Assembly (NCBI GenBank): GCA_964187785.1
Contig: OZ076409.1
Span: 76,262,001-76,326,000 of the forward strand
Reading direction: 5' to 3'
Source of the DNA: Amphiscolops sp. MND2022
Taxonomy: Eukaryota
DNA: 64,000 nt
Shown: in pieces, positions 1,356 through 38,098 of the stretch
Numbering within the stretch: the stretch's first letter is position 1
Layout of the letters: each line of letters starts with the position of its first letter
Position numbers and translations under genes: made by a program
The notes under the pieces: generated by a model
The model's input: only the letters and a program-made list of their open reading frames with translations
Database searches by the model: none
Told to the model about the DNA's origin: nothing

Positions 1356-1399
1356 GATAGCCTTTCAAGTTGGCCTGGTGTCAACTTGGAAGCGCTATC
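1356..1399 (+). other. Long bulged hairpin GATAGCCTTTCAAGTTGGC-loop-GTCAACTTGGAAG(C)GCTATC (first example; families A, B, D)
   Basis: Imperfect palindrome, also at about 3329, 5303, 7278, 9250, 10783, 13455, 17486, 34654 and 37420. Confidence 0.85.
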
Positions 1400-1742: not shown

Positions 1743-1762
1743 GGGCATGCCGAGGCATGCCC
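1743..1762 (+). other. Conserved subterminal hairpin GGGCATGCC-GA-GGCATGCCC (first example; precedes 25 of the 33 junctions)
   Basis: Perfect 9-bp stem inside the conserved block caacgcccaccgtc(c/t)gtgggcatgccgaggcatgcccttcgacgacgtat, ending roughly 45-60 nt before CTAG. Confidence 0.9.
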
Positions 1763-13777: not shown

Positions 13778-15048
13778 GTGGACGGGAACTTTTTTTCCTG
13801 CATTTTTCTGTCCAATTGGGGGAGGGGCCCCAAGTGGCTGTTATCCGGTTTTACTACCTACCCTAAACACGCTCAAAAAATGACGATCTCGAAAACCACC
13901 CCTTAGATTTTCCTGAAACTTTGCATACAGGCCTAGAATCAAATCCTAAGAACTATTTCCTACTGGCGTTTTTCCGAATTTTTTCAAAAAGTTGGTCAAA
14001 AATGCAACAAAAGTTGCCAATGGACATAAAAAACGCAACTTTTCGACTTTGAGGGCTCATAACTTTTTTCAAAGTGCCCGGAGCGATTCGCACAATAACA
14101 ACAATATTGCTCAGCATTGTCGGGGGAGTGCGTGGACAAATTTTGGTTTGAATCGGATGAAAAATGACTGAGAAATAAACGCAAATTTTCGTGCATTTGT
14201 TGCAAATACCAGTCTATCTCTGCCATTTTCGCCCAAAGTTTTTCCCAGAGCCTTTACAGGAGGCAACCCCTGCCCAAATTTCTGCCGAGCAAACCCATTT
14301 GGCCCTAAATACGAAGTTTCAGCGTTCTAGCATTTCCGGGCAAAAAGTTGTGGGACTTAGAAAAATTTCAAAAAAACGCAAAAATTGTAAAAAGTAACTT
14401 CTGGCGTCCCAAAGTCAGGAAACTTTCACACAACTAGTATTGCAAGTGAATGCATGTGGAAAGTACTCGGCTGGACGAGAACAATGAGCTATAGAACGAC
14501 TCTGTAGCTTAATTTGACGTTGACTTAGAACATTTTGATTGTGAGCGTCCTATAGGATTTTAATGTCAAAAATGAGATTTTGTAAGTCATGACTCATCAA
14601 AAACTCATTGGAATACGTTCAATCATCCCCATAGCTGTTCAATCACCGTTGCTTAGTAGAGCAACGCCATTTAATGTCTTTGGACTCATTTTGAAAATTC
14701 TTCTTACCGTCTTATTCGTCCGATATCACGAAACAGTTGAGTACATTCCATCTCCCCCTTGTGGGGGAGATGAGAATGTACTCGCCAAAGACCTGATACA
14801 ATGGCCCATATTGGTTTTTATTTGACTTTTCTCACAATATTGCACACGGATAGTTGTGTTTGGTAAAAGTTTTCCTTCGCACCATGTCTCCAGAAGCTAA
14901 ACCACTTCTTTACCTTACTACTACTCAAACATCACTAACGTCAACGCCACATACTCGCATCAACGCCCACCGTCCGTGGGCATGCCGAGGCATGCCCTTC
15001 GACGACGTATGCCAAATAGCGCCACCTGGCGCCCCCAATTTCCGCTAG
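13778..15048 (+). mobile_element. Family C non-autonomous unit (1271 bp)
   Basis: CTAG|GTG bounded; similar to the unit at 11114. Confidence 0.82.
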
Positions 15049-18000
15049 GTGGCCGGGGGATTCCCCAATCTTCATTTTGAGGCGCGGGGAGGGTCCTGCG
15101 CCGAAGTGAAAAATACCTATTAACAACTAGTATAAAAAATGGTCACTTCTGAAGCCGATTTCGAAAACTACCCACACGATTCGCCTAAAAATTTGCATGC
15201 GGCTCCCAATCGACATTCTAAGAGCAAATCCCTACTACCAATTTCCTGGGAAAATTCATTTTGATGGTCAAAATCTCTATTTTAGGTTCCAAAAATGGCA
15301 TTTTTCTGGAAAATTTTTGTCCCAGAGTCGATTATTCGGAACTGGTGCTTCCAGCGCAGTAAAGCCTAGCTGATTTATTGTTGGGCACTTCATCAGGAGT
15401 CCGTATGCAAATTTTCGTCCAAATCGGATAAAAATTGACTGAGTAATAGCCGCAAATCCGACGATTTTTTCAGAAAATTTTCGTACATCTAGTCTATCTC
15501 TGCCGTTTTTTGCCCAGATTTTTTTCCAGGACCTCTCCTAAAGGCCTCCCCTGGCCGGTTTACCTCCCAGAAAAACCATTTGACCCTTTTGCCGCAGTTT
15601 CAGCGTTCCAGGATTCCCCGGGTAAAAAATAAATGACTTAGAATTTTTTCGAAAAATTTTCAAAAATTTTTTTTTCAAATTCAGGCCTCCCAAAGGTAAG
15701 AAACTTCCACACAACTAGTATTGCAAGTGAATGCATGTGGAAAGTGCTTGAATAGACGAGAAAAATGAGCTATTATAAAACTCTCTAGCTTAACCTGACG
15801 TTGACTTATGTTGTTTTGAAGGTGAGATTGGGGTGTGTGAATTACTAAATTTCGTCTAAACACCCATTTTTCGTGAAGTCGAAATTCAGCTTTTGAAGCA
15901 CAAATATTCTTTCTGATGCAACCAGTGGGGCACATGATATTCGAAAAGACCAATAGGATTGGTACAAGTGGCTCCAATATTACATGGGCAGCGATAAGAC
16001 GTTATTCATAAAAAAAACTTATCAATTCAAGTAAACATATCGGAAGCCTGGGATCACAGTGAAAAATGATTTCATCAAAAATTTACTCGTTTTTGTCAAT
16101 CACTATGTACACAGAACGCGTACGCTGAGTTTCAGCACTAAAATAAGGTTTTTGAAGTAATCGGGCTGCTCAATTTGTGGCTTTTTATCATTTGACGTTA
16201 TTTTGTTGCGTTTCTTATGTCTATTTTGCGTTTTTTTCCTCATAACTTTTTTCCAGGACATCATAGCCATTTTTGTTGCTCCTACGTTGCGTTGCAGCAT
16301 CTGAAAACACATCTGCTGACAAACTTTGGTTGAAATCGGATCACCCCCCGCCGAGATAGAGGGGTACCCCCCTCCGATTTTACCCCACAATTTTGTAAAA
16401 ATGCCAATTTTGAGCATGAAGCTGTCGATTTAGCGTGTCCGTACCCTGCTGAAAATTTGTCGGGCGTAAGGCGTTACAGCTGATAACAGGTATGTTTTTT
16501 ACCTTGTACCCCCCTGAGACCGAAAATGACATTTTTTATGTACTTTCAGACCGGAAATCAACATTTTTACAGATTCAAGCCACCCAAAGTCAAGAAACGT
16601 CCACACAACTAGGATTGCAAGTGAATGCATGTGGAAAGCCCTTGTTTTAGGGAGAAAAATCCCGTTTAGAACGTCGTTTTATCTTAACCTGACGTTGACT
16701 TATGTTGTTTTGAAGGTGCGATTGGGGTACGTGAAGTACCAAATATAGTCTGAAACACCCATTTTTCGTGAAGTCGATTTTCGAAATTCGGCTTTTGAAG
16801 CACAAATAATCATTCTGACGTAACCAGTGGGGCCCATGATACTCGAAAACACGAATGGTACTGGTACCAACGGTTCCAATAACATATGAGCAGCGATAAG
16901 ACATTATTCATAGCAAAATTTCTCAATTGAAGTAAACATCTGGGAAGCCTGGGATCACAATGAAAAGTGATTTCATCAAATTTGTACTCATTTTCGTCAA
17001 TCACTTTGTACACAGAATGCATAGTGTGAGTTTTATCACTTGAATGATGTTTTTGAAGAACTTGGGCTGGTCAAGGTGATGTATGAGACATTTTTTTCAT
17101 GTATACTACTATATTTCCTAAAACTTTTAACCCATTATCTCAAAACGCTAACTTTGCAAAATACGTTCAGTTACTTTATTCAACGATTAGAGTATCGGTG
17201 AACGGTGTGGTTGATCAGAAACTCTCAGTTCTTTTGTTTTACGAGATAATTCCCTTCCCATGCGTTACATTTGTATCAGAAAAAAAGTAGAAGCTAAAAA
17301 ATACGCTATTTTGCAAAGATAGAATCGCCACGATTGTGTCTAAAAACACTTTAAACACTTCTAACGCCACCTTACGGACCCAGGATGGTGGAAAATACCA
17401 TTCACAATGTTGCAATGTGCTCTTTTTACAATCCAGGTTGAACAATTTTTGTATATTTTACAAGTAGCTGTTAACTGAATCTTGTGATAGCCTTTCAAGT
17501 TGGCCTTGTGTCAACTTGGGAAGGCTATCACCACAAAAAAACACTGAACAAAGTCACTTCTCGTTTATGTCGTTTATGGGATAATGCTGGCGATAGTCGT
17601 TTTCGTGATTCTTTCCTACCGTTATTAGCTTCCATCAAGTCAGCTATCGATTGCATTCAGTCTTGATAAAAACCTTATGAATTCGAAGACCTTTTTCTAT
17701 TTTTTTTTGACGGCAGTACTTATGAAATTTATATTAAATCTAAACATTTAGTACAATAATTTTAGCTTTCTTTTACCGTTATCAGCCCCATCCACCCCGT
17801 ACGTTCTCGTACCCCAACACAACAAATTCTCTGAGTCAACGCCACACACTCGCATCAATGCCCACAGTCCGTAGGCATGCCGAGATGAACGTCATCATTT
17901 TTTTGCCAAGATAACAGAATAAGTTAACATTATGTTGTTTCTCACGCGCAAGAGCGAGATTGAAGATCCAAGTCGAAAAAAGATGTTGTCATAACTTTTA

Positions 18001-18164
18001 CACTAATGTGTTCCTAATTTAAACAACAGAACCAATACTGACGCAATCTAATTACCCGACGCCACATACCCTCATCAACGCCCACTGTCCGTAGGCATGC
18101 CGAGGCATGCCTTTCGACGACGTATGCCAAATACCTTCCAGCGACGCCCGCGCTCCCCGGCTAG
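15049..18164 (+). mobile_element. Family D composite non-autonomous unit (3116 bp)
   Basis: Contains an internal duplication of the central block (about 15690 and about 16585) and a decayed extra terminal motif near 17835. A same-length copy lies at 34983. Confidence 0.82.
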
Positions 18165-19436
18165 GTGGCCGGGAATTTTTTTTCTGCTCAAATCTTTGCC
18201 GCTGGGGGAGGGGCCCCTTGCGGCTGCTGTTCGGTTTTACTACCTACCAAAACCTGCTTTTTTTTTCACGATCTCGAGAACCACCCGTACGATTTTCCTG
18301 AAAATTTGCATACAGGCTTAGAATCAAATCCTAAGAACTATTTCCTACTGGCGTTTTTCCGAATTTTTTCAAAAAGTTGGTCAAAAACGCAACAAAAGTT
18401 GCCAATTGACATAAAAAACGCAACTTTTCGACTTTTAGGGCTCATAACTTTTTCCAGAGTGCCCGGAGCGACCCGTGTGCATCGGACACTTTTGTTCAGC
18501 ATTCTAGGAAGAGTGCGTGGGCAAATTTTCGTTTAAATAGGACAAAAATTGACTGAGAAATTAACGCAAATTCTGGTGCATTTTTTGCGAAGACTAGTCT
18601 ATCTCTGCCATTTTCGCCCAAAATTTTTCCCAGAGCCTTTACAGGAGGCAACCCCTGCCCAAATTTCTGCCGAGCAAACCCATTTGGCCCTAAATACGAG
18701 GTTTCAGCGTTCTAGCATTTCCGGGCAAAAAGTTGTGGGACTTAGAAATTTTTCAAAAAAATGCAAAAATTGTAAAAAGTAACTTCCGGCGTCCCAAAGT
18801 CAAGAAACTTTCACACAACTAGTATTGCAAGTGAATGTATGTGGAAAGTACTTGGATAGACGAGAAAAATGAGCTTTAGAACGACTCTCTAGCTTAATCT
18901 GACGTTGACTTATGACATTTTGAGTGTGAGCATCCTATAGGATTTTAATGTCAAAAATGAGATTTTGTAAGTCATGTCTCATCAAAAACTCGTCGGAATA
19001 CGTTCAATCATCCCCATAGCTGTTCAATTACTGTGACTTAGTAGAGCAACGCCATTTAATGTCCTTGGACCCATTTTGAAAATTTTCGTTATCGTCTTAT
19101 TCGTCCGATATCCCGAAACAGTTGAGTACATTCCATCTCTCCCTTAAGGGGGAGATGAGAATGTACTCGCCAAACACCTGACACAATGGCCCATATTGGT
19201 TTTTATTTGACCTTTCTCACGATATTACACACGGATAGCTGTGTTTGGTAAAAGTTTTCCATTGCACCATGTCTCCAGAAGCTAAACCACTTCTTTAGCC
19301 TACTACTTCTACTCAAACATCACTAACGTCAACGCCACATACTCGCATCAACGCCCACCGTCCGTGGGCATGCCGAGGCATGCCCTTCGACGACGTATGC
19401 CAAATAGCGCCACCTGGCGCCCCCAATTTCCGCTAG
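18165..19436 (+). mobile_element. Family C variant unit (1272 bp) with a different left tip
   Basis: Body resembles the 11114 unit; the first ~60 bp resemble the 60351 unit. Confidence 0.8.
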
Positions 19437-20689
19437 GTGGTCGGTATTCTTTACTACCTCATGCTCTGAGGGCGGGGTAGGGCCCCTCGCCCGATCCTAA
19501 TCCTTAGGATTTTAAACATAAGGCCAATAATCCAGATAGAGGCGATCTCGAAAACTAACCTTACGATTTGGCTGAAATTTTGCATGCGGCTCCCTATGAC
19601 AGATATAAGAACAAATCCCTAGTGGCATTTTGCTGGGAAAATTCAGTTTTTGGGTCAAAATCACTATTTTAGGTCCAAAAAATGGCGTTTTTTCGGAAAA
19701 TTTTTTTTCAAGAGCCAATATCTCGCTCCCAGGTGCTCGGAGCGGGTCGCATGTGGACGTTGATATTGCTGGGCACTTCATAAGGAGTCCGTAGACAAAT
19801 TTTGGTTCAGATCGGATGAAAATTGACTGAGTAATAGAAAACTTTGAAAGGCATTTTGTCGAAAATTTTTGAAATCCCAGTCTATCTCTGCCGTTTTTTG
19901 CCCAGATTTTTTTCCAGGACCTCTCCTAAAGGCCTCCCCTGGCCGGTTTACCTCCCAGAAAAACCATTTGGCCCTTTTGCCGCAGTTTCAGCGATCCAGG
20001 ATTCCCCGGGTAAAAGTAAAATGACTTAGAATTTTTTCGAAAAATTTTCAAATTTTTTTTTTTCTACTTTACGCCTCCCAAAGTCAAGAAACGTCCACAC
20101 AACTAGTATTGCAAGTGGATGCATGTGGAAAGTGCTTGAATAGAGGAGAAAAATGAGCTATTATAAAACTTTTTAGCTTAACCTGACGTTGACTTATGAC
20201 AATTTGAGTATAGGTAGGTTTTAAATTAGTGGTGTTCCTAACTAATTTTTTTCCTTTTCCAGGTGACGCAGTCGACTTTTTCTGCATACAGGTAGTATTT
20301 GGTAACAGGTTACGTCTGGTTTGTGGTAATTTGGTAAGCAGAAGGTAGTTTCAGAAGGTAAGTATTTTTTTCTCTGCCCTGTTCTTTTTAGAGGGGGTCC
20401 CATGGACCTCGCTGACGGTTGCAAATGTGTAGGGCAACCTGAGGCGAAAGGTGTAGATCTGCCTTAAGGGGCGGTGAGGTAAAATAAATCTAATTAAGGT
20501 CCGATTGTTTAATGCTTCTTTAAACTGAGCTGTTTTGTATGTGTCTTGTTCTTGTATTATTCGAATGTTTTAAATTTAATTACCTTCAGTTTTTTTTACT
20601 TATTACAGTGTCACATAATTCAAATCTTTCAAATTTAATTACCTTCAGCTTTTATTTACATGATTGTTTCAATTCCTGTTCAAACTTCG

Positions 20690-21270
20690 TCGAGCGACGG
20701 TCTACTAATACAAGGGTGGCCAAATGCTTATATACATTTCTTTGGTATTGATTTTTCTCTAATTTCCTTGGCGAGCGGCGGTCTTTCGATACAAGGGTGT
20801 TCAAATGCTTATTTTTTACATTTTTGATACTGATCTTTTAACGTTTTCCATTGAGACAGTTCACCAGTTTCCATTGGTTTTGAAAATTTATTAAAATTTT
20901 TAAAAATGCTTATATACATTTCTTTGGTATTGATTTTTCTCTAATTTCCTTGGCGAGCAGCATGTTTTATCAGTTGAATAATTCAGTATTTATTTCATCT
21001 TTTGAAGATTTTATTCTTGTTAATTGAAACCTTTAAAACCGAATCTTTAACTAATCCATTTCGCATTCTTTCGAATACCAAACTACTTCTTTATCAAATG
21101 CTCATATATATTTCTTTGGTGTTGCTTTTTCATTTTCCATGGCGAGCGACGGTCTACTGATACAAGGGTGGCCAAATGCTCCGAAAAGCTTCTTCGTGTT
21201 TTTGGTGTTGCTTTTTTTCATTTTCCATGGCGAGCGACGGTCTACTGATACAAGGGTGGCCAAATGCTCT
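20690..21270 (+). repeat. Dispersed direct repeats carrying stem-loop motif GAGC-GAC-GGTCTACT-n-AGGGTGGCC-AAAT-GCTY
   Basis: Copies at 20699-20721, about 20780-20802 (degenerate), 21151-21173 and 21239-21261, plus a truncated copy near 20952. Confidence 0.8.
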
Positions 21271-21328
21271 AAAATATGTATGTAACAGTTTATTGGGTTT
21301 TAATTTTCGGTTCAATTTTTTCAGAAAT

Positions 21329-22003
21329 ATGCAAAATTCAGTCGTGATAAATTCCATGTCTTTTTTGGTGGAAGAATTTATTAACGGAAGTCCTATGCTC
21401 CTTCTTGGAGACAGTCTCTTGTGGGGCTTCCGAATGGCGGAGGTCGATCTCATTGCAATCAAAGGCGCAAGGCCTCAAGACCTCGAACAATACTTGATGA
21501 ATAATCCACTACCCATGGACACTTATAGAGTCATCGCCGTGATATGCGGAGGAAATTGCTTTAAGCAAAAAGTAAAAAATGGTGTCGTCAGGCCAAACTG
21601 TTCGCCATTTCGTGTGAGTAACTTTTCTTTTCACTCATAATGCTATTAATATTTATTTGACATTTTTTTGTGTATTGACACTTTGATACATTGATTCTCT
21701 TTGGAAAATCATACGATTTGTTTCCAGGCATACCGTTTGCTAATCGATTTAGCAAATTTTATAATGGCTCAAGCTACCGCCCGTGTAATAGTTATTGGCG
21801 TGCCTCCGCGCCATGATGGTACCCTTGAAGAAATACGCCAGTTGAATTCTTTGCTTGCCCTAGACAGGCGCTTTGGGTACAAATACATAGGAGTCTCCTG
21901 CTCCCTGATCAACAAGTCGGTCCTCGGTCAGGACAAAGTACACCTCCAGGCAGAAGGGAAAGCGAAGCTCAAAAGGGTTATCAGAACCAAGATAATATGT
22001 TAG
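21329..22003 (+). CDS. SGNH/GDSL hydrolase (esterase)-fold protein, 2 coding exons: join(21329..21613,21728..22003), about 186 aa
   Basis: Block I LLLGDS, block II KGAR, block III CGGN and block V DKVHL are split over ORFs 21176 and 21701. A phase-0 intron 21614-21727 (GTGAGT...TTCCAG) joins them in frame. The ATG lies 4 nt after a TTTTTTCAG acceptor ending at 21324. The start codon is inferred. Confidence 0.82.
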
Positions 22004-22604
22004 TTTTTCTCATCAGTATTCCTGAATATTTTTCTTTTTCTAAAATTTTTCTTTTTTATTCATTTTGAGCTTACATCGTTCGTCATTTTCTCTCTGTGTT
22101 ATTAAATGTTCTTTGTTTTCCACAGCAAGATACCTTTGAAACAGGGAGTCGAGTATCTATCCTGTATTGACTGATTATTGACTGACTGTTACTTTTGTTG
22201 TAGCATTGCTGGTTCAATACTTTGCATTGTTTAGTATTGCTTATTTGTTATTATTTATTCTGGTTCATTATTATGCTTTGTTTTGAATACTCTTTTGAAT
22301 TATCAATCAACTTTGTTTCTAATTTAAAACTAGGGTGTCAGGCAATGTGACGTTAGCGAGATTTTTTCTGTTCAAAAACGTATTTCCCGTCGCAATCAAA
22401 TTCAAGTCGTATAACATTTAAGTGCCGAGTTGACTTTTTCAGGAACAGGTATTATTAGGTAAAAGGTATTAGTTCAATGAATCGAACATGTTTTCCAATG
22501 TAAAACTGCGGAGCATAACCATTTGAGCGTTTTTTCAGAATCAATTGTATTGTTCCCATTAGCTTGGACGACTTTGCAATCGAGCTCTTGGCTAAAAGTC
22601 TAAT

Positions 22605-25600
22605 ATGCCCCCTGGTAGAGGGAGAAAAGCGAAAGGCAGGCGGCCTATGTGTTTGAATTGTGGTGGTTTTCTTGGAGGTGATGGAAGTTGTAGCAGATGT
22701 CTGGCGAGAGAGGTAGTAGTAGAGGATGAACCGCAGGTAAGTATAGACAATACCCCCATACCCCCAATGTTCCCCAATGATATTGACATGACAGAAGAAG
22801 TGACGATGCCCCCGGTTGTCCCCAACGACATTCAGATGACAGAGGAGGAAACAGTGTGCAGTAAGTGTTGCAGGACTACTACTGACGACTACCCACTTGA
22901 CTTCCAAACTTTGAACAAAGACTCTGTACAATCAACAATGTTTGGCAAACCTACTCGTGAGATGGTCGGGGACACAGTAACAATGTGTCAACAGTGCCTC
23001 ATTTACAACAGCAACGATAACCGGTCGACAGATTGGCCCAATGCTTGGCCCAGCGTTATGTATACCTTTTTATTCGAAACACATAGGTTCAATTCTAATA
23101 CTCGGAATCTGTTGAACGTTCTGCCAGTCGAAATAAGACTTTCTTTTCGGTATCACTTAAACACTGTTTGTCCGGGTTTATACACTAGTGTTAACGAAAC
23201 GGGATTTCGGGATATAACTAAAGAAAAGTCAAATTTTTGGACTCTAATTACCACTCGAACTGCTAAAACACTGGTGCAAGCTTTAACTGAGTATTGTTTT
23301 CCAAACGTTAGATGCCCGGCAGGTTGCTTCGAGTTTATTGAAAAAACATCCGGTATTTCTTTTGCACATTTTTTAAATTATTTACACCCGACTTTTACAA
23401 GTTTCAACGCAAACAGTTCTAAATTTCTGAACGGTGCGCGGAAAAATTTCCTAGAACGTGAAACACTGTTGGAAAAGTTCGAAATTTCCCCATGCGTTAT
23501 CAACAACCAAAACGGATTGCAATTAGTAACTTGTTCCGACCATGAGAATGGTGTTACACTAAGATACGTTCATGTGCCAACTAACCCAATAGTAGGAAAT
23601 GTAAGTATTAATAATGCAGACAGATTAGCTTTGATGGTATCGAGCGTTCGAACAGTTCGACCCCTGAAAATAGGATCTAAAAGTGCTACTTTTACCATGT
23701 GCCGTGTCGACAGTGGACGGGTAAGTGGTGTGAGCTCCACTGTTCTCCATAAGTTCAGAAACTTTGACGCCCCCTATAATGAACGTTTATTTAATCTTGA
23801 AAAATTTATAATTAACTGTAGGACTGATGTTCAGGATGTTATTAGAACTTGCTGTGAAAACGAAGAAATGAGCAACATTTTGGCCGAATTTTATTTGAAC
23901 AGTGAATCGCCCGTCAGTAATGTCATTGTTGAAAAGCACATTTCCAATTCAGTAGTTTTTGATATAAATTGTTTGATGAAAATGAAAGATTTTGTTGAAA
24001 GTTGTCCTGATGACATGAAAAATAAGGATTACTTCATGGCGCCCATAGCTTTTGGACACACAGTCGATGATTATGGCCATGAACCACCAACTCTTCCACA
24101 AACAGTTTCAGAAGATTTTGACTTGTTTGCTTTTGTTGTGGCATTTTCTACTCAGGATGTTTTATGGTCCAAGCTTGTGGAAAATTGTCAAGACAACTAT
24201 GATGTTCAAGCATTGTGTGGAACACTCCATAAACTTAGGCAAAGTTCTAATAAAAGAAGAAATGGTAAGAAAACTAATAATTCGGTACGCGCAACAGCTG
24301 TTAGTGCGCTTACATTAGCCTTGGAAAACATTTTTGGCTCTAAAACCGACGCATTTTTAAATATGTGTGAAATTCTCGACGGCTGTATGGTCGTTCAGAT
24401 CCAACGCAGAGAATTCGATATTAGGGTAGACTGTACTAGGAATGACGTTGTTGTTCTTGCTTCCGTCGTCTCAACTGGTAGAAATCCTCAACTTCCGTTT
24501 GAAATAACTTCTGTCAATGGTCGGTCATTCCATTTAACGTTGATAGTTGCGGAAAACAGAGCTAGCGTGCGTTATGGACCACCTTTTTTCGGTTTTTGGA
24601 CCATGTCGTCTGATGGGCACAGACCGGTGAAAGATCCCAACTTGCAGGAGCAGTACAATCGAACTTGGAAGTTTCTCGTTTACATATCAAAAACAACTTC
24701 ACCGGAATCTTCGAAAATGCGATACTTGACGTATATGGGAGGGCAAAGTGTGTTTTTCTGTCGGGAACATAATTATCCCTTAACTACTGATTACATAAGC
24801 AGCAATAGGAAATGTAGTCTACCAAGAACTGACCACCGAGGTCTAACATGCACGCGAAAATCCGCCTGGAGATGTCCTAAGAAAGATTGCTTTGCTTCGA
24901 CTTGCAAATCACATTTCCGCGAGTTATGCGATAACGTAGATCGAGTTTTCGTAGATAATACACCTTCAGATGAGCCTATAGCTGACAGCAGTGATGACGA
25001 AATTCTGTTGCCACAAGACGAAGAACAACAAAGCCCTGAACTTGATCAACGTGAATTTGGTCTTGACAACCCCGGAACTTCTCATTATGAAGAAGAAGCA
25101 AATATGGACGAGTTTGACGCCCCCCAGTTGATTGTAGACGCCGGTTATCAAGACAATAACGCTTTTACCTCTGACTCTGGCTGTGAACCTGTTTACTTGT
25201 CTAAAGATTCCAATTGCGTCCCTATGCACGTTCTTCTGAATGGAGAATGTCAAGTAATGAAACGACTGCGATATCCGACACCTGTAGGCAAAAAGTTCAA
25301 ACGGTTTTTTCAAAATTTTGTTTCAACTCTGCAAGGAAGAGCAATTCCTTTTCTTCAAGTAGAGGCGCACATGTTTGTTCACATTTTTTACAAGCAGTTG
25401 GAGGACGGATCATTTCCTGGCGCACTTCCCTTTTTTTTATATGATGATAGATACGCTAACTCAAAATTTGATTTCGATGGCCTCCACGAGCACATGAAAT
25501 TAAGACTGAAAGACGCAACACTTTTGACTTCATCAAGTCTTCCGTACATTATGCACGCGTTCGATGCCGTTCTAAATTTGTCGTTGGTTAAATGTCACAC

Positions 25601-28600
25601 AAATCAGCTTTTTAAACGTGGTCTGCAAAATATTCAAATTGGTAAGTATAAACCGCAGCAGTTAACATCAACTGAGTCTGTTTTGAGGATGGATAGTGTC
25701 GACAGCGATGTTCATGTTAACCGTCTCGCAGCCGCTTGCAAATCTGAAATTCCCGATATTTTTGTTACTTTTACATGTAATCAAAAGGAACATCCTGGAG
25801 TAGCCGAAGTCGTTCAGGCTATTTATGAACTTTACGGAAACGCAACAACTGAAGAATTGAAAGAAGTGCTCCAGGCTTACATGGTCATCATTGTAAGATG
25901 CTGGACGAGGACAGTTGAACTTTTGTTAGATTATTTGAGATTTTCCGACGAACATATCTTAGGTGAAATTTTGAAGGTTTGGGGTCGGGCTGAGTTTCAA
26001 AATGCCGCAGCAAACTTACAACATTATCATATTCTTTTTTGGTTAAAAAATACGTGCGAAGACATAATCGACAAAATTCAATGTGCTCATAAGCATGTTT
26101 TCAATGAATTCAAAAATTTGTTTCACACGAATTTTGGAACTGTGGATAGTGAACAACATGCAGAACAGATGTTTGATGATTGTGTAAAAATTCAAACACA
26201 TAATTGTGAAAAAGGACATTGTTTGAAGAAAGTTAGGTTGAATGGCGAGCGAAAATGCCGCTTCCCTCCGTATCCCGAAAGTCACGTCCCATGGTACAAA
26301 GAGTTTCATCAGCCGCACTCTAATGAGGCTTTAGAAGCGTTGAGTGAACTCGGCTTGGCTGAACCATTGCCTGGTACGGAAACCGGCTTCCAGGTTACGT
26401 CTACTTTGAAGGCAGGTAAGTACATGTACGCTGCGCAAAAAGGTGAACACATGTCCCCATGTAACGTTCCGTTGTGGAGCATCACAAAATCGAGTTTAAA
26501 CGTGCTTAAGGTTTGTCATTCGGTCGCCCATCGTTACCTTACGTCCTATACAGCCGGTAAAGAAGAACATGCTGATGTTAACATTCACCCCGACAATTCC
26601 CACAACGTCTGTAATGTGCGTGTGCAAAATATACAGAATAAAAAATTAGGCGGTGTAAGAAAAATTTTGGCTCGTGAAGCAAAACAAAATAAAACTGATG
26701 GCCTAATCGATTCTACTACGATTGCCAGCACTGAATGTGTCTCATGGTTGTTGCAACTTCCAACTGTGTTAACAACTATGGATTTTGTTTCCTGTCCTTC
26801 CGTGCCACTTGAAAATCGTGGTGGGGTTATACTTAAGAGAAAAAACAACACCCAGTCGAGGGTTGATAGGCCAGGTGTAGCAAATGAGGGACCAGCAGAA
26901 GTTAGACAACTGATGCTCAGTCTGCCACCTCACAGATGGTTAACAGAGGCGCAAAAAACTGTTTTGGAAAGTGTTAACCAGACTGCTTTTAGCACAGACA
27001 AAGTAACCGTTTTTTCATTACGTCCACCAGAATTACTATTTGTTGATAAATTGAAGTTGTACTTTAGGTGGTTCGTTCGGGAAAAAGTTTCTAAGAAAAA
27101 TGTGCACTTGACGTTATTAAAACTTGACATTACTGAATCCCATTGGTTGGATGGAGAAGGTTACGCGATTCGACTTAGGCCTTGTGCAGTTGAGGAATTT
27201 GAAAATTTTGTACTTGAAAATTGTTTGGAAAATCCCTCGAATGATCGACTGATTGATGCTTCGCTGGTAATTTCGGTTGTGCTAAATGAACCAACACACT
27301 CAAATTATAGTTTTTTCGTTTCTGAAGATAAAACTCTGTCTAATACCCCGGCTGAGGTTGTTTTCTCTAAGGTTTACCCCCGTTCTCCTGCCAACTTTTT
27401 GGTTCATGTTTTACTTTCTACAGGTAGCTTCGAAACTGAACTGGAGCTGTTTGATGTTCCGTCCTTAAAAGATGCGTTTGTAAAGGGTAAAATCATTGAA
27501 GATAAACAATATTATGATGAAAGTGACGTGAATGAAATCGTAAAAAAATATGTTTTGGAAGAACTGAGGTATATGCCAGGTGGAACAAGGTCTTTCGATG
27601 CAAATTTTCTTGCAGCCAAAAACGCTTTCAAGGGTCTTCTCATTAACAACGACATTTATTGTGAGTGTCTTCCAATTACGTTGATGACAACTTTGACTGA
27701 AGCGTTAGAAGATAAAGCCTTGAAAATGATGCGTCAGTCTCAACTAAACATCATCAAGTCGCTGGTACAGAAAAAATTGCCCGGTTTCCCTTCGAGAGAC
27801 GATTTTGAGTACATTAGTAAAGAGTCACCATCAAATTGGGCTGGTGATCTAGTGCCGAATTCCTTTCAATCGGTTGAATCTTTGCAAGAACAAAGCTCAA
27901 TTTTGGAACTTTTAAAAAATGGTATCAATGAATGTGTTTTTGTTGAACATAAGTTTAGGAAGCATCAATTGATTCTTGGCCCACCTGGCACTGGCAAAAC
28001 TTATGTCTTAACTATGGCGTTAGGTTTTGCGTTGTCAAAAGGTTTATTTTGTTTGGTAACAAGTTTAGCTGCAAGAAGATCGATGCAGTTTGGAGGTGAG
28101 CATATTCATAAGTTGTTTTGCCTTCCTACTGTTAACAATGGCTCGCCTTTGAGAATGGCTGAACAAGCGCTGTCGAAACTTGATTACAAAAATGACAAAA
28201 AAATGCTACTGCTTGCCGTCGAAGTGCTGTTTGTTGAAGAAATAAGTTTGATTAGTGCCGAACAGTGGTCTGCAATGGACATCATTCTGCAAGAACTGAA
28301 ACAGGTTACCATGCCATTCGGTGGGATACTCGTTGTTGCAAGTGGTGATCAGATGCAACTTCCGGCCATAAGCGGTAGTGACATTTTTTTCAGTCCCGTT
28401 CTCTTGACAAATTTTGCTTTATTTTTTTTGGAACACTTTGTACGCATGACTGACGCGGATGGGCAAACAATTTTGAAACACATGTGGAGACGTCCCATTC
28501 TACGTCAAGCGATTCAAGAAATAATTGACATTTTGGGTGACAAGTGTACTTTCAAAGAAACATGGGAAGATCTGGACGATCCATGCGTCATGCGTGTCTT

Positions 28601-29756
28601 TGGCAAACGAAAAGCTGAACAAAAAGAGTTCGAAGATCATATTCAGCGAGTACGTGCCTCAGGTACCCCATACAAAATTTTCCACGCAACTGATGAAATC
28701 TGTCTTGCAAAGAGCAAAATTTGGACTGCAACTGACTCTGTACAAGTAACGAACCACCTGAACAAAGAGGTGAATGAGCCAAAACAACTGATTGTTTACC
28801 CAAAAGCGTTGTTGAGAGTCACAGTAAACATGGAATCGGAACAACTATCCCAAGGTCAAGTAGGAGTAGTTCATGAAGTTCCTACTGGTGACTCGGTCAC
28901 AATTTACATTCCTGACAGCAGCGGAGGCGAAGTGACCATTACTTCTGAAATGCTCCAACAGGAACAATACTTGGCCTGGAGATCTGTGACTCTTCGAAAA
29001 CAAATGGGATTCGTGCAGCCCTTTAAGAAAAATTCTGTGAGACGACAGCAGCTCCCCCTGATGAATTTCGTTGCTCTGACAACGCACAAGCTCATGGGTG
29101 ACACTTTTGACAAACTCGCGACGTCGATCTCGGCCAACGGAAACAATGCCCTGTGGATGACGTCCCAGGTTTTCGTCATAGTCAGTCGAGTTAAACAACT
29201 GAAAAACCTGACTTTCGTCGGATCGAAATCGGAAACTTTAAACGCTGTTAGGACAATTTTAGAAACTAGAGACAGACGCGAAGAACATATGTTTAGCTTA
29301 TTGGACGGTATTAGGAACAACTCACGCTCTGGTTCCACCGCGGAGCCCATTAACATCTCTAGAATGTCGTTCGTTCCGTTCAACAAAAACATACCCGAAA
29401 CACCAAATGGTTTTGTTTATCTTCTGACAAGTGTGAATCCAAACTCGGCAGGAACTTTTTACATAGGTCAAACAAGTAGGGCGTTGTTGACTCGTTTGTC
29501 GGAGCACAATACCGGTAATGGCGCTGAATTCACGAAAGTACCCCACCGACTACCGTGGGCTGTTGCCGCTTTTATTTGTAACTTTGCGTCCGCAAATTCA
29601 CGGAAAGATTTAGAAGAAGAACTACATCGTTGTAAGATAGCTCGGCGGCACAGTTTAAAAACTCTAGAAGACATGATTGCACTTTTCCAGGAGAAGGTTA
29701 ATGAAAAAGATTGTAGTTTGTATTTTTGTGTATGCGGGGGAACTGGGCCAACATAA
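22605..29756 (+). CDS. Helitron-type Rep-helicase transposase (Cys-rich N-terminus, HUH Y2 Rep, PIF1-family SF1B helicase) with C-terminal GIY-YIG nuclease, 2383 aa
   Basis: Rep motif 1 PDIFVTFTCN (about 25752), HUH motif EFQNAAANLQHYHILFW (about 25992-26042), QTHNC..HC..KCRFP Cys/His cluster, and Y2 motif RYLTSY (about 26535-26549). Helicase motifs GPPGTGKT (about 27978), LFVEEISLI, FGGILVVASGDQMQLP, RQQLPL..ALTTHKLMG and QVFVIVSRVK. GIY-YIG signature GFVYLL..FYIGQT..RLSEHN.GNGAEFT...PW from about 29409. Confidence 0.93.
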   Translation: MPPGRGRKAKGRRPMCLNCGGFLGGDGSCSRCLAREVVVEDEPQVSIDNTPIPPMFPNDIDMTEEVTMPPVVPNDIQMTEEETVCSKCCRTTTDDYPLDFQTLNKDSVQSTMFGKPTREMVGDTVTMCQQCLIYNSNDNRSTDWPNAWPSVMYTFLFETHRFNSNTRNLLNVLPVEIRLSFRYHLNTVCPGLYTSVNETGFRDITKEKSNFWTLITTRTAKTLVQALTEYCFPNVRCPAGCFEFIEKTSGISFAHFLNYLHPTFTSFNANSSKFLNGARKNFLERETLLEKFEISPCVINNQNGLQLVTCSDHENGVTLRYVHVPTNPIVGNVSINNADRLALMVSSVRTVRPLKIGSKSATFTMCRVDSGRVSGVSSTVLHKFRNFDAPYNERLFNLEKFIINCRTDVQDVIRTCCENEEMSNILAEFYLNSESPVSNVIVEKHISNSVVFDINCLMKMKDFVESCPDDMKNKDYFMAPIAFGHTVDDYGHEPPTLPQTVSEDFDLFAFVVAFSTQDVLWSKLVENCQDNYDVQALCGTLHKLRQSSNKRRNGKKTNNSVRATAVSALTLALENIFGSKTDAFLNMCEILDGCMVVQIQRREFDIRVDCTRNDVVVLASVVSTGRNPQLPFEITSVNGRSFHLTLIVAENRASVRYGPPFFGFWTMSSDGHRPVKDPNLQEQYNRTWKFLVYISKTTSPESSKMRYLTYMGGQSVFFCREHNYPLTTDYISSNRKCSLPRTDHRGLTCTRKSAWRCPKKDCFASTCKSHFRELCDNVDRVFVDNTPSDEPIADSSDDEILLPQDEEQQSPELDQREFGLDNPGTSHYEEEANMDEFDAPQLIVDAGYQDNNAFTSDSGCEPVYLSKDSNCVPMHVLLNGECQVMKRLRYPTPVGKKFKRFFQNFVSTLQGRAIPFLQVEAHMFVHIFYKQLEDGSFPGALPFFLYDDRYANSKFDFDGLHEHMKLRLKDATLLTSSSLPYIMHAFDAVLNLSLVKCHTNQLFKRGLQNIQIGKYKPQQLTSTESVLRMDSVDSDVHVNRLAAACKSEIPDIFVTFTCNQKEHPGVAEVVQAIYELYGNATTEELKEVLQAYMVIIVRCWTRTVELLLDYLRFSDEHILGEILKVWGRAEFQNAAANLQHYHILFWLKNTCEDIIDKIQCAHKHVFNEFKNLFHTNFGTVDSEQHAEQMFDDCVKIQTHNCEKGHCLKKVRLNGERKCRFPPYPESHVPWYKEFHQPHSNEALEALSELGLAEPLPGTETGFQVTSTLKAGKYMYAAQKGEHMSPCNVPLWSITKSSLNVLKVCHSVAHRYLTSYTAGKEEHADVNIHPDNSHNVCNVRVQNIQNKKLGGVRKILAREAKQNKTDGLIDSTTIASTECVSWLLQLPTVLTTMDFVSCPSVPLENRGGVILKRKNNTQSRVDRPGVANEGPAEVRQLMLSLPPHRWLTEAQKTVLESVNQTAFSTDKVTVFSLRPPELLFVDKLKLYFRWFVREKVSKKNVHLTLLKLDITESHWLDGEGYAIRLRPCAVEEFENFVLENCLENPSNDRLIDASLVISVVLNEPTHSNYSFFVSEDKTLSNTPAEVVFSKVYPRSPANFLVHVLLSTGSFETELELFDVPSLKDAFVKGKIIEDKQYYDESDVNEIVKKYVLEELRYMPGGTRSFDANFLAAKNAFKGLLINNDIYCECLPITLMTTLTEALEDKALKMMRQSQLNIIKSLVQKKLPGFPSRDDFEYISKESPSNWAGDLVPNSFQSVESLQEQSSILELLKNGINECVFVEHKFRKHQLILGPPGTGKTYVLTMALGFALSKGLFCLVTSLAARRSMQFGGEHIHKLFCLPTVNNGSPLRMAEQALSKLDYKNDKKMLLLAVEVLFVEEISLISAEQWSAMDIILQELKQVTMPFGGILVVASGDQMQLPAISGSDIFFSPVLLTNFALFFLEHFVRMTDADGQTILKHMWRRPILRQAIQEIIDILGDKCTFKETWEDLDDPCVMRVFGKRKAEQKEFEDHIQRVRASGTPYKIFHATDEICLAKSKIWTATDSVQVTNHLNKEVNEPKQLIVYPKALLRVTVNMESEQLSQGQVGVVHEVPTGDSVTIYIPDSSGGEVTITSEMLQQEQYLAWRSVTLRKQMGFVQPFKKNSVRRQQLPLMNFVALTTHKLMGDTFDKLATSISANGNNALWMTSQVFVIVSRVKQLKNLTFVGSKSETLNAVRTILETRDRREEHMFSLLDGIRNNSRSGSTAEPINISRMSFVPFNKNIPETPNGFVYLLTSVNPNSAGTFYIGQTSRALLTRLSEHNTGNGAEFTKVPHRLPWAVAAFICNFASANSRKDLEEELHRCKIARRHSLKTLEDMIALFQEKVNEKDCSLYFCVCGGTGPT

Positions 29757-29795
29757 AATGTTATGTTTCTAAACAGAAAATAATTTTAAACGTAG

Positions 29796-30365
29796 GCACT
29801 GTTGAATTTCGCACTAAGTTCGACTACAAAGGGTGGACACCGTGCGATATTCAACAGTTGAATTTCGTACAAAGCTCTACTAATTCTTTGAGGGTGGGCA
29901 TCGTATGAAATTCAAATGTCTACTTTAAAAGAGAAAGTAAACTTAAAAGTTTGATAATACTGCTTAAACTTTGTTGGGTATCGCACAAAGTTCGACTACA
30001 AAGGGTGGACACCGTGCGATATTCAACAGTTGAATTTCGTACAAAGCTCTACTAATTCTTTGAGGGTGGGCATCGTATGAAATTCAAATGTCTACTTTAA
30101 AAGAGCAAGTAAACTTAAAAGTTTGATAATACTGCTTAAACTTTGTTGGGTATCGCACAAAGTTCGACTACAAAGGGTGGACACCGTGCGATATTCAACA
30201 GTTGAATTTCGTACAAAGCTCTACTAATTCTTGAGGGTGGGCATCGTATGAAATTCATAACTCTAATTTAAAAGTACGATTAGATCTGATTACTTCATAA
30301 TTACCTTGAACAATGTTGAGTGTCGCACAAAGTTCGACTAAAGAGGGTGGACGCCGTGTGACAAA
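29796..30365 (+). repeat. 172-bp tandem repeat (three copies plus a partial fourth) downstream of the Rep-helicase stop; each full unit has two stem-loops
   Basis: GTTCGACTA(C/A)A(A/G)AGGGTGGAC at 29818, 29990, 30162 and 30332; GCTCTACT..AGGGTGGGC at 29874, 30046 and 30218. Confidence 0.9.
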
Positions 30366-31128
30366 CAAAACTTTCTTTGTTTTTGTACGTTTAATACGGT
30401 TCAGACTGTTTAGTTAGTTTCCTTTGCACTTAACTGGGACAGATGCAACAAAAAAACGGGAGAGAAGAGGCGGGACGAACTCCACAGAAGATCAAACGGC
30501 AAGTAGCTAAAACTAAATGTATGCCTTAGTTAGCTACTTGTCCTTTGTGGCAAGTACAACGAGCCCTTCTATCTTCATGTACTTGCCACTCTTAAGATTT
30601 AGGAACTAAAATGGGAAATTTTTTGACTTGAAAGCCAATTGAATGCTTTCACTGGACTTTTTGACTTTTTTTGACTCGAAAACAGACTTAAAACTAACAG
30701 ACTTAATTGAACTCTTAACCCCTACACCAATTGTTTTTTCCTAGTGAGATGAGTTGAGTGAGGCGTAGTGTTCATACAACACTCGAGAACAGTCATCAGA
30801 TCTTTTAAAAATAGCGTAATGTGAGTCCAATGCATGATCCAAAATGAGGCGGAACAATTTTAGTTTCAAATTGAGTGCATTACCAGCATTTTCTTCGTAG
30901 AAGAAAATGCTGCTTCAAAGAAAGTAATTGTGAGATTGAGGAGACATTAATTAGGGCGTCGAACTCGTATAGGTGATGTATGACTGATTACTACGGTTCA
31001 ACGACTTGTACTCATATTGTATTTGAATTTCAGATTCTTTGAATTCACTTTCTGCAGCTTCTTGCCATTCCGTCTGTTTCTTAAAGTCATTCCGTCAATT
31101 GTCATCATAGTAGTAAATCATTCAAAAA

Positions 31129-33104
31129 ATGGCCCAAGAAAAGCAAGTTGTCAACGGTTTTTTCAAACCTGGTGCATCGCTTGAGATGTGTGTCAATAAT
31201 CTCCGGAGATTCGATGATGTGTCATTCGGGACCTTGATTTCAAGTGACAGAAAGCCACGACTATACAAGGTGCAGGCAATTTATTTGTACGCGACGAAAT
31301 CGCAAAAGAAGTACCGAATGTATGCGCCGGCGAAAGGCAACCTCACCGCAGTTAATAAGGAAATAACCACCTTTGACAGGTTTCTGGTTCTTGGAATTCC
31401 AAGCAGTCCACATGTTGTCACCATGTTCCTGAAAACGCCGGCCGCAACTAAGTTGAATCTGAAGTTCAGTCAGCATATGTCGCCAGGTTCTCCTTTATAT
31501 ATAATTATGCCCCGAATAGTGTCCTTCCTCTCGCCTCAGAATCCGGAGATTGTGTCGGCGGACCCCCTCATTCCCGTGCCTACCAACTCGTTTCGACAAC
31601 TGTACACACTTCCCCCAGCAGATGTCGACAGCCCAAACTTTACATGGTTTGACTTTGCGTCCAAAAGTGTAGAGGTGTTCCAGGCCAATGCGCAGGACAG
31701 TGTCTGCATCGGCACATTCTGTGATAGCCAAACGAATCAACTGTCCTGTCCGTGTACATGCACGGTACCGGAGAAGAAGTGGGTGCTGTCACTCACGTTC
31801 ATGTGCGATGAGCTGGCGGGCATTGCCAGAGATCAGGTGGTGTTTGTTTCTCAAGCGCTATCCCGAGTTTTCGTTTCCAACGAAATGTTAAAATGGCCTC
31901 TCACCAATGACATTATCGACCCGTTCGACATGGACGATGCTGTAAGATAACCTAATTTTCCTTCACTGACTTTTATCTGTAAAAAATTGAAAATCAATTG
32001 AATTTTGAAAAATTTAAATTCTAAAAAAAGTGAAAATGAAACAAATGATTGTAATTCGAGAATTCAACAAACGAGGTATTACGTGTCATGTGACATTATC
32101 CATTTCATGAACTAAAGACATCGTATCAGCAGTCCTTTCAATTTGTCTTGAGATACTATAAGGTTTTCTTTGGCAATTTTAACTATTGATTATCAAACAA
32201 AGTTCGACTACAGAGGGTGGACACCGTGCGATATTCAATTGTTACATTTTGCCAAAGAAAACCTACTAGCATCTCAAGACAAATTGAAAAGACTACTGAT
32301 ACGATGCCATAAGCTCATGAAATAGATGATGTCACATGATTCAGCATACTTCCATTGTTGGAAATTTTTAATTGTAATTAAAATGGTATGAATGTAATTC
32401 CACAGGTCCGAAATCTTGTCGATGACGTTAACAAAAAACAAGGATTCCGCATAAAGGGTTGGTTCAAACCCGCTACGACTGAGGATGGAGTCACACATGA
32501 AATTTTTAGTATTCATGTGTCCTCCTTGTCTCCTGTAGAGCCTTTAACAGATGAACAAAAAAGGCTTATGTACGGAGCAACTTCACGTAAGTATTTCTCT
32601 CTTCTTCAATTTCCCCTAAAATAATGTTCTTTTATCTAGCGACTTGCTTAAAGTATAAACCATTGTGGAAAATGGGTTTCTCAAAAAATGAGGTCATATT
32701 TTATAGTGATTACAGAAGAAAAAATCTGGTGTATACTTGGTGGAAAAAAATTACAAGTGAAGCCGTTACCAATGACGTTCGATCATGCAGCAAACAAAAG
32801 TTTTATTCTTGATAGCTCTTGCTATAGCGCAAGCTTTGTGTATGAACAAAGACGTTTTTTCAAAAATTAATATTGCTTTTGTGGAAATTGAATTCAATAG
32901 CCTTTTCATTTGCACTTATTTAATTGTTTAGATGCCACTACTACTACTACTACTACTACTACCACTAGTGCTACCGGATTTAATTCGAGCGCATTATCAG
33001 GTGCTAACCAAAGTGTTTCATTTGGCTGTGGCAGCGCAGACGGTGGCAGCGGCTCTAACGACAGCGCAGAGAATCCTCCCAGTAAAAGACCTCGTACAGA
33101 ATAA
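31129..33104 (+). CDS. Protein of unknown function, 3 exons: join(31129..31941,32406..32586,32932..33104), 388 aa; Cys cluster, low-complexity tail, C-terminal basic NLS-like motif
   Basis: ORFs 31129, 32388 and 32910 join in frame through a phase-0 intron (GTAAGA 31942...CACAG 32405) and a phase-1 intron (GTAAGT 32587...TTTAG 32931). The product ends PPSKRPRTE. AATAAA lies at about 33482. Confidence 0.75.
32080..32345. repeat. Long imperfect inverted repeat (arms about 100-120 bp) in intron 1 of the third gene
   Basis: TCATGTGACATTATCCATTTCATGA..CATCGTATCAGCAGTCCTTTCAATTTGTCTTGAGAT..AGGTTTTCTTTGGCAA pairs with TTGCCAAAGAAAACCT..ATCTCAAGACAAATTGAAAAGACTACTGATACGATG..TCATGAAATAGATGATGTCACATGA. 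Confidence 0.88.
32937..32966 (+). repeat. (ACT)n microsatellite encoding a poly-Thr run in exon 3
   Basis: actactactactactactactactaccact is visible in the sequence and in frame with the Thr run. Confidence 0.85.
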
Positions 33105-33586
33105 GGTCTAATCGAGAGAATTAGAAACCAACATTTTTGGTTTTGTTGACAAACTACAAAATAGGGTTGCCACTAGTATTGACCCAGATCTCCTGTATTA
33201 TGATTTTCTGTATTATGATTCATTTTTGCACGAACCTTTCAAAAGTTGGTTACACTTCGAGATATTACTGTTATTTCATGTTGAATGTTGATTTGTTGTC
33301 CAGATTACTCATTGGTATTTAATTTGTCAATTCACTATTACTGAACTGGTTGTCTCTTTTAAAAATAGAAGTTAACATTAGACATTCAGTAGTTACATTT
33401 CTCTAGTTAAACCACAAATACAGCTCCTGTTGTCGTGAAGGTTGGTTTTGTGTAAAAGTAACAAAATGGCGTTGGTTTGAAAATAAATAAAAAAATAAAA
33501 TGGTATTGCAAAAAAGTACACGTTTTTTCAAGTAAAAATTTAATACTACCGCCTCCTGGTTTGATTGTTCAACCGTGCACGTCTAG

Positions 33587-34982
33587 GTGGTCGGGTATTT
33601 TTTTTTACTCGTAGATGGCGTTTGCGAGGCTTTGGGGAGGGCCCCGTGCCGAGCCTGTACCGAAATTTACCACATACCAGAAGTGTCCGATTTAATCGAG
33701 ATCTCAAAAACTAACCGTTAGAATTCTCTGAAATTTTGCATGTGGCCCCTAATCAATGAGTAATGAAAAAGTGTAGAAGTGACGGTTGCTGAAAAACTTG
33801 TCTTTGTTGCACTTTTTGCGCAATTTTTGTCGCATTGTTGCGTTTTTTATGTCATTTTCGACTTTTCAAGCAAAAAACTCATAGATGCTTTGTTCCTAGC
33901 GTATCAAGTGTGGAGCACGAAAAGTTGCAGCATCTTCCCTTACGTATGCTGAGAAAATTTGGTTGCCCTCGGATTACCCCCCACAGAGATAGAGGGGTGC
34001 ATCCGGGTATTTTTGACCCCTAAATTTGGGAAATTGCTAATTTTCGTAATAAAGCCGTAGATTTAGCGCGTGCACACCCTGCTGAAGATTTGTTAGGCAT
34101 TTTGAGATAGATCCGATGACATGCGTTGAGTTCACCCCCATCACCCCCGTGACCGGAAATGAACGTTTTTGCGCACTTTCAGACCGGAAGTCTCCATTTT
34201 CACCGGTAAGGAGGCATTGTACGAGCAACTAGCAGGATATCAAAAGTGAAGTATAACCTGGGGTCAACTTAATGACCACGTGTTGTCCAGTCATGGGTTT
34301 CGCTATGACCGGAAATGGGCTTAAAACCCCCTTTTGGTAGTATTTTTATCAATTTTCCTTGTGCTTGGTCCACATTCAAGTTGCGTAAGTCAGTTGAACC
34401 AGTGAGAGCATAAAATATATGTTCACTGTGTAGTCGTAATTGACACTGCCAAATACCGGAAGTAACCCCCTGTGACCGGAAGTGGTCAATATTGACCGGA
34501 AATGGTCCAAAAAGTAGCGTAAATGCAGTTTTTCATTCGTTTTATGTCACTTTTTTTACTTTTTCCAAGCTGATTGTTTTTTTTCTACTCACAAAGCTAA
34601 CATCGTAACTTGTTTGGCTAAAGTTCTGCAGAATTATCACCTTTATCACCCCCGATAGCCTTTCAAGTTGACCTTGGGTCAATCTTGAAGGCTATCTTTT
34701 CTAAAAACGAAAAACAGGAAAATTTGTTTTTCTCATTTTCTTTAATATTTTCCTTTAGGTAATTTGTTTTAGCAAAGACTGTTGCTCAACTGAATGATCT
34801 GAAACTTGTTCAGAGGTGTCACCCAGACAACGATTATTTGAGGTTGAAGTAAACTGAGAATGAGGGTAGTATTAGTCAACATCACACAATGTTACCAACG
34901 CCCACCGTCCGTGGGCATGCCGAGGCATGCCCTTCGACGACGTATGCCAAATAGCGCCACAGGGCGCCCACACTTTTGCTAG
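33587..34982 (+). mobile_element. Family B non-autonomous unit (1396 bp)
   Basis: Similar to the unit at 12388; directly abuts the autonomous element's CTAG. Confidence 0.82.
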
Positions 34983-37900: not shown

Positions 37901-38098
37901 TCCAAGTCGAAAAAAGATGTTGTCATAACTTTTACACTAATGTGTTCCTAATTTAAACAACAGAACCAATACTGACGCAATCTAATTACCCGACGCCACA
38001 TACCCTCATCAACGCCCACTGTCCGTAGGCATGCCGAGGCATGCCTTTCGACGACGTATGCCAAATACCTTCCAGCGACGCCCGCGCTCCCCGGCTAG
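34983..38098 (+). mobile_element. Family D unit (3116 bp), apparently identical copy of 15049-18164
   Basis: All ORF-track entries lying wholly within the unit recur with identical translation at a constant offset of 19,934 bp. Confidence 0.88.

Follow-up and report, generated by a model that had tools for sequence, protein, structure and literature searches.

Introduction

Transposons of the Helitron superfamily are usually split into two groups, HLE1 (Helitron1) and HLE2 (Helentron/Helitron2). Helraiser, which belongs with the first, is described as moving by single-strand rolling-circle transposition through a circle (PMC5876387). In the HELIANO survey unclassified clusters exist, and one HLE2 family, HelenSM92 of Sphagnum, is described with a GIY-YIG domain, inverted repeats, and T|T sites; the text available does not name GIY-YIG among the stable extra domains of HLE (PMC11417382). 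Paramecium Helitrons are presented as a third clade outside HLE1 and HLE2 with a telomere-repeat target, and the term "GIY" is absent from the main text of that preprint (10.1101/2025.11.06.686955). The bacterial element IS91 is reported to insert at CTTG and to end in CTCG, with its HUH enzyme alone picking the target (PMC13181058).

Here, we describe a Helitron-like element in a 64-kb stretch of DNA (the window) on contig C1 of the 1.07-Gb Amphiscolops genome. We lean, with some reserve, toward the view that it represents an undescribed, ancient Helitron-like branch of animals and diatoms, recognizable by CTNG|RT ends like those of IS91 and by an SLX1-type nuclease fused to the transposase. 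Its members would home into the origin of related elements and in this way assemble arrays of several megabases in which many families share one direction. If this is true, the joint between transposons would itself be what these transposons target. Our literature search, from which Repbase/Dfam and subscription journals were left aside, found no description of the clade; as far as the available text of each source goes, neither the fusion nor the target is described in PMC5876387, PMC3627910, PMC6431247, PMC5148889, PMC13565253, 10.1101/2022.12.15.520654, or 10.64898/2026.09.17.752431. The superfamily would gain a widespread branch whose ends and target rule are both new, and which finders built on TC/CTRR or on inverted repeats would likely miss.

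A Rep-helicase protein with a C-terminal GIY-YIG domain

The RepHel-GIY-YIG gene lies at positions 22605..29756 (+) and encodes 2383 aa in a single open frame (frame 22596-29756, first ATG at 22605), in the order Rep (HUH, two Tyr), PIF1 helicase, and C-terminal GIY-YIG. The Rep domain (25722..26594, +; about aa 1040-1330) matches Pfam Helitron_like_N at aa 1042-1144 (E 5.3e-10), and its motifs, H1140-Y-H1142 and then Y1311 and Y1315, are kept in 26 aligned proteins and can also be aligned with HLE1 and HLE2 references. The PIF1-family helicase (27966..29213, +; about aa 1788-2203) has its Pfam match at aa 1788-1923 (E 4.6e-11). The GIY-YIG motifs follow about 70 aa C-terminal of helicase motif VI, in an SLX1-like domain with C-terminal helices (29409..29756, +) that is recognized by Pfam, by profile, and by predicted fold. 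When the whole protein is searched, the Pfam match covers aa 2269-2339 at 24.0 bits against a cut-off of 22.6; with the last 143 aa alone, it reaches E 1.4e-6. A preliminary description made from the sequence alone had read this ORF as a Rep-helicase with a C-terminal GIY-YIG nuclease, and the Pfam match and the presence of the motifs it quoted bear this out. No Pfam match to an AP endonuclease or to DUF6570 was found in the 2383-aa protein at E<=1.

Six catalytic-type residues are intact (Y2272, Y2286, G2288, R2297, H2301, and E2337); they stand at the usual catalytic positions of the family and presumably have the roles known there. A profile built from 15 copies matches SLX1 chains (E 1.3e-10 to 1.2e-7) and UPF0213 (E 1.9e-8 and 7.7e-4), with no other match under E 1. 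Searching with an AlphaFold model of the last 138 aa (pLDDT 81.8), Foldseek returned 11 matches at E<=0.001, every one of them Slx1 or HIGLE, while UvrC appeared only at E>=0.56. The likeness to SLX1/UPF0213-type domains in the preliminary description therefore holds in both profile and fold. The domain resembles SLX1, HIGLE, and UPF0213 in fold, motif spacing, and catalytic-type residues; unlike SLX1, it is fused to a transposase and no RING domain follows, and the model contains no DNA-binding module C-terminal of the GIY-YIG domain. By profile and predicted fold, it belongs with the SLX1/HIGLE branched-DNA nucleases and not with the homing or UvrC types. Over 15 pairs of copies, with pS near saturation, pN/pS is 0.22 for the GIY-YIG domain, 0.12 for Rep, 0.14 for the helicase, and 0.32 for the N-terminus, and the value of 0.22 indicates that the fusion is under purifying selection.

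Structure of the element

The gene sits in an autonomous Helitron-like element of 14,150 bp (19437..33586, +; 5'GTG...CTAG3') with a junction at each side. At the left junction (CTAG|GTG, 19433..19439, +), the end of the upstream unit is followed by the start of the element, and the right junction (CTAG|GTG, 33583..33589, +) marks its right end. The first 773 bp of the element, like its last ~41 bp, recur in short non-autonomous units; one such derivative (38099..39351, +) carries the left 773 bp at 95% together with the right-end motif. Just inside the left end, at 19470..19492 (+), lies a hairpin around a conserved GGG(G/T)AGGGNCCC motif, recognized by co-variation of its arms. A 172-bp tandem repeat of 2.7 copies is also contained in the element (29809..30274, +).

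Two further genes accompany the RepHel gene. Upstream is a two-exon accessory gene (21161..22003, +) supported by frames and splice sites, with GDS, GGN, and DxxH motifs and no Pfam match; judging by these motifs, it presumably resembles the SGNH hydrolases. In other families, SGNH-like frames of this kind lie on either the upstream or the downstream side of the RepHel gene. Downstream is a second conserved gene (31129..32587, +; exons about 31129-31942 and 32406-32587) that encodes a beta-rich protein with five conserved Cys (model pLDDT 83.6). Homologues of its first exon occur in 15 further elements, with identities of 25-100%, and the gene is conserved across families that are 25-36% alike. 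The protein matches the uncharacterised family PF28132 (Atlas score 0.93), which may be a transposon accessory family, and weakly the OB-fold proteins CDC24, POT1, and CTC1 (Atlas 0.83, below threshold and a lead only); when solved structures were searched by sequence, the single match had E 0.46. The protein is thus possibly an OB-fold single-strand binding protein. Altogether, 20 accessory frames returned zero Pfam matches.

Relationship to HLE1, HLE2, and other known systems

The element shares the defining features of the Helitron superfamily: an HUH/Y2 Rep followed by a PIF1 helicase in one protein, and multiple copies with defined ends and no target duplication. For comparison, we took three HLE1 and five HLE2 references, all found in the Amphiscolops genome and assigned to type by motif and DUF6570, and built an unrooted tree from 409 Rep+helicase columns of 26 sequences, 18 of them clade members. 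The references split from the 18 clade members at 100/100, and separate Rep and helicase trees support the split at 0.886 and 1.0. The preliminary description had proposed a distinct Helitron lineage, and this split, together with the clade-wide occurrence of the fusion described below, upholds that proposal. The element is likely a distinct lineage apart from HLE1 and HLE2, as judged by the unrooted tree, and an overlooked branch.

As in Helitron1/HLE1 (Helraiser), a Rep with HUH and two Tyr is fused to a PIF1 helicase, right ends are mostly CTAG, target duplication is absent, and non-autonomous derivatives occur. Unlike HLE1, the left end is GT(G) instead of 5'-TC, the flanks are CTNG and RT instead of A|T, a conserved left-end hairpin and a fused GIY-YIG domain are present, and the RepHel protein falls on a separate branch; the match to Helraiser is restricted to the helicase (E 5.6e-7). 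With Helentron/Helitron2/HLE2, it shares an additional endonuclease with the RepHel, a left-end hairpin, and, in some relatives, an OTU. Unlike HLE2, it lacks an AP endonuclease, DUF6570, asymmetric terminal inverted repeats (in 113 end pairs, the longest inverted match averaged 4.9 versus 5.1 in a crossed control), and a T|T target, and it does not group with HLE2.

Two systems outside these groups are alike in behavior. Going by their description, Paramecium Helitrons share the strict orientation and the clustering with non-autonomous copies, but theirs target telomere repeats and no GIY-YIG is mentioned in the main text. IS91, as described, also uses an HUH enzyme, has a tetranucleotide target (CTTG, also CTCG) that is mimicked by its terminator end, is orientation-specific, makes no duplication, and has circles with an ori-ter joint (PMC13181058). 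Unlike the present elements, IS91 is bacterial and has no helicase, no nuclease, and no megabase arrays; the likeness noted here is one of rule.

Ends, target site, and left-end hairpin

Elements of the clade run 5'GT...CTNG3'. Among 169 units, the right end is CTAG in 153, CTGG in 14, and CTTG and CTCG in one each. CTRG precedes 612/621 left ends of one abundant family, and 59 left ends genome-wide are preceded by CTTG or CTCG. At 20 loci outside the main array, we sampled 21 right ends and found CTAG|GT at 12, CTAG|AT at 8, and one variant, so that 20/21 read CTAG|RT. Founders in unique DNA read CTTG|GTG...CTAG|AT, and three founder insertions showed no target duplication.

To look at empty sites, we took 30 loci with left ends after CTTG or CTCG, eight of which have a paralogue that runs through the site. 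GT continues in 4/8 of these; the other four read CA, GA, CT, and AA, the AA case being a short 87% match. Three left ends follow internal CTTG sites at which the intact paralogues read on with CA, GA, and CT, and these cases may reflect either relaxed targets or early termination. Taken together, the ends and flanks indicate an IS91-like target rule of CTNG|RT without duplication. Since the elements themselves end in CTNG, every junction is itself a target. The preliminary description had raised the question of whether homologues also sit in CTAGGTG arrays; they share this kind of junction, but their target is wider than that heptamer. A GIY-YIG match exists, and the homologues are not ordinary dispersed A|T-inserting Helitrons, so neither observation that would have spoken against the initial proposal was made.

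The GGG(G/T)AGGGNCCC motif lies ~39 nt inside the left end, and its flanking arms vary by family yet pair. Over 48 left-end types, the arms co-vary, with a mean of -8.86 kcal/mol versus -6.36 +/- 0.27 kcal/mol for swapped arms, and swapped arms were as stable as the real ones in 0/300 trials. Folds of single sequences gave no significant hairpin at the left end or at the right end of the 14,150-bp element. For HLE1, the expected right end is CTRR with a hairpin close to it; here, many right-end types have a hairpin, while the type found on this element is without one. We consider the left-end hairpin a likely origin signal, a role that we assign by inference.

Array organization and growth

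The whole window (1..64000, +) is a mixed head-to-tail array with 33 CTAG|GTG junctions. CTAGGTG occurs 34 times, 33 of them on the forward strand, versus 3.56 expected by chance. When the window is cut at CTAG|GTG, the units other than the 14,150-bp element measure 1.07-3.1 kb. An equivalent of the empty site is present at 12384..12390 (+), where a junction unites both unit families that flank the element; the junction-proximal sequence is identical to the flanks of the element, and the whole units are 91% alike.

Of the 266 candidates found across the genome by matching the GIY-YIG domain, 150 were scored, and many of them sit in frames >2,200 aa. The copy in the window and 20 others, spanning 28-99.96% protein identity, were examined; these 21 were chosen for long open frames, which biases them to young array copies. 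A CTNG|GTG junction is present at the right of 21/21 and at the left of 20/21, and the autonomous elements are 12-26 kb long. The copy that is 99.96% identical has equal length and different neighbors at both sides. Degenerate, older dispersed copies exist as well. On C1, the listed array markers all lie on the same strand; they begin at 70.5 Mb and end at about 76.5 Mb, with unsampled gaps between them. Further clusters lie at C2 102-104 Mb, at C3 2.4-3.9 Mb, and at many smaller sites. Megabase clusters are found on only a few of the 13 large contigs; the regions on C1, C2, and C3, which consist largely of these elements, may be centromeric or subtelomeric heterochromatin. Arrays with exact joints bring together families that are just 30% alike in protein, and small arrays of three to four unlike units are embedded in unique DNA.

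We then compared neighbors among the 169 units, which come from 20 stretches and form 149 adjacent pairs. None of the pairs (0/149) are twins at 99% identity, four are at 95% (shuffle 2.9), and 10 are at 90% (shuffle 5.8, p 0.03). On the other hand, a non-adjacent twin at 95% was found for 101/169 units, and a given family is followed by many different ones. The lack of twin neighbors at 99% argues against simple rolling-circle concatemers, and separate insertions at joints fit the growth of the arrays, as read from these sequences, better than concatemers do. Stacks likely grew through new copies landing exactly at the joints of old ones. Some read-through or block copying contributes, given the excess of neighbors at 90% and a 30-kb two-unit block shared by C2 and C4. 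In this block, a 4.9-kb unit and a 25.7-kb autonomous element are 97% identical on C4 and C2 while their outer neighbors differ, which possibly reflects co-transposition of two units.

Proposed mechanism and competing explanations

The reading that we consider reasonably probable is that of a Helitron-like transposase, apart from HLE1 and HLE2, whose Rep likely joins the element at CTNG|RT with a preference for resident joints, while the nuclease is predicted to trim flap or branched DNA. Wherever the right end of one element abuts the left end of another, CTNG|GT is formed anew; almost all young copies occupy joints of this kind, share one orientation, and differ in their neighbors. By analogy with Helraiser and IS91, Rep would nick CTNG|GT, the helicase would peel off one strand, and the joint of the resulting circle would be the same as the genomic joint. 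On its own, the hexamer is present millions of times in the 1.07-Gb genome, so a strong bias to joints needs a second cue. Most likely, Rep would bind the left-end hairpin of a resident element and take that origin as the acceptor. A signal common to all families would then lead to shared arrays of up to megabases that serve as a safe harbor. The fused nuclease would cut by shape, either clearing flaps of the displaced strand or resolving a branched, looped integration or donor intermediate, a job comparable to what the AP endonuclease may do in Helentrons.

A different possibility is that the GIY-YIG domain itself recognizes and nicks the junction or the opposite strand and so directs insertion, in the manner of the target nucleases of Penelope elements or of homing endonucleases. 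The preliminary description had named nicking of the junction target, besides resolution of integration intermediates, as a role of the nuclease that could explain the self-targeting. The fusion and CT[AG]G|GT ends do co-occur in distant hosts and the domain is under constraint, but its nearest structures are the shape-specific SLX1 and HIGLE, no DNA-binding module follows it, and insertion leaves no target duplication. IS91, in its description, reaches its CTTG target with the HUH enzyme (PMC13181058), a rule like the one seen here. Moreover, exact junctions are also occupied by C1_75.17 (R to C, H to I) and C1_73.91 (R to G), two families in which the active site has degenerated. This counts slightly against a role in targeting, although both families may have been moved in trans. 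Target nicking by the nuclease is therefore less likely, and we regard this explanation of the self-targeting as unlikely.

The arrays could also have arisen with no insertion preference, through rolling-circle concatemers and read-through, scrambling by unequal exchange, and selection against dispersed copies. In plants and bats, Helitrons arranged in tandem are on record (PMC5876387), and the slight neighbor excess at 90%, the shared two-unit block, and the older dispersed copies would fit such an origin. It is harder to reconcile with 0/149 neighbors at 99%, with 101 families at 95% among the 169 units and many different successors to one family, with exact joints shared by families 30% alike in protein, and with the small arrays of unlike units in unique DNA, and overall it seems improbable. 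About as improbable, in our judgment, is that the lineage has already been noted, as the Paramecium third clade with its strict orientation, the HELIANO unclassified clusters, or the GIY-YIG-bearing HelenSM92 (PMC11417382), and that the nuclease, decayed in part of the clade, is an optional captured passenger, because inverted repeats and T|T sites, both part of the description of HelenSM92 as an HLE2, are absent here, the Paramecium preprint has a telomere-repeat target and no "GIY" in its main text, and the domain is retained across about 25-30% protein identity with pN/pS of 0.22.

Insertion at CTNG|RT with a preference for resident joints would offer a route to megabase satellite-like arrays by insertion instead of amplification. 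The young intact copies (99.96% alike) make both the role of the extra nuclease and the resolution of the single-strand integration product testable. Genome engineers would also have an interest in a transposase that stacks 12-26 kb of cargo, always in the same orientation, at a short joint placed beforehand.

Relatives in other hosts and additional loci

A profile of the last 914 positions matched 698 protein clusters at E<=1e-30. We examined the best 150, some of which come from the Amphiscolops host or close kin. The GIY-YIG domain is present in 134 of these best 150 clusters; Y, Y, G, R, H, and E are all kept in 103/134 domains, while 31/134 are without one or more of them. Among further homologues, 94/96 have the domain. 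Sea squirts, crustaceans, and diatoms are represented among the named hosts, which include Styela clava, Cyprideis torosa (where the copy is truncated), Hyalella azteca (where the site has decayed), and Thalassiosira sp. By sequence, the GIY-YIG fusion is clade-wide. Viral contigs gave 41 pattern matches, none of them a relative.

At metagenome loci, the domain lies in a frame of at least 200 aa in 25/32 cases. A recognizable end was present at 5/32 loci; none was seen at the other 27, most of which are short. Of two copies that are 99.8% identical, one has its GT start after CTGG and the other, on a second contig, after CTAG. At three further loci, CTGG|G precedes the same hairpin motif, in one case downstream of the gene, as expected for a next element. 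A clade member was also found on an 8.9-kb contig labelled as a Marinobacter MAG, which is likely eukaryotic DNA binned with the bacterium. At four plankton loci, the homologues are accompanied by a conserved frame of 600-790 aa on the opposite strand, which is 55-73% alike and has no Pfam match.

Two DNA sequencing runs with a small share of the element yielded only short diverged contigs, and no RNA run was among the sequencing runs listed with the element. Canonical HLE1 families and DUF6570-bearing HLE2 families occur in the same genome, one with JAB and one with OTU. At C3:19.968-19.988 Mb, an intact GIY-YIG frame and an HLE2 Rep frame with DUF6570 share one strand about 9 kb apart, and the pair may represent either nested elements or an HLE2 carrying the nuclease. 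In family C2_102.54 (C2 about 102.543 Mb), an apparent frameshift was rejected, as a 67-nt GT-AG intron restores the fusion. This intron lies between the helicase and GIY-YIG exons, so gene callers give a RepHel protein without the nuclease.
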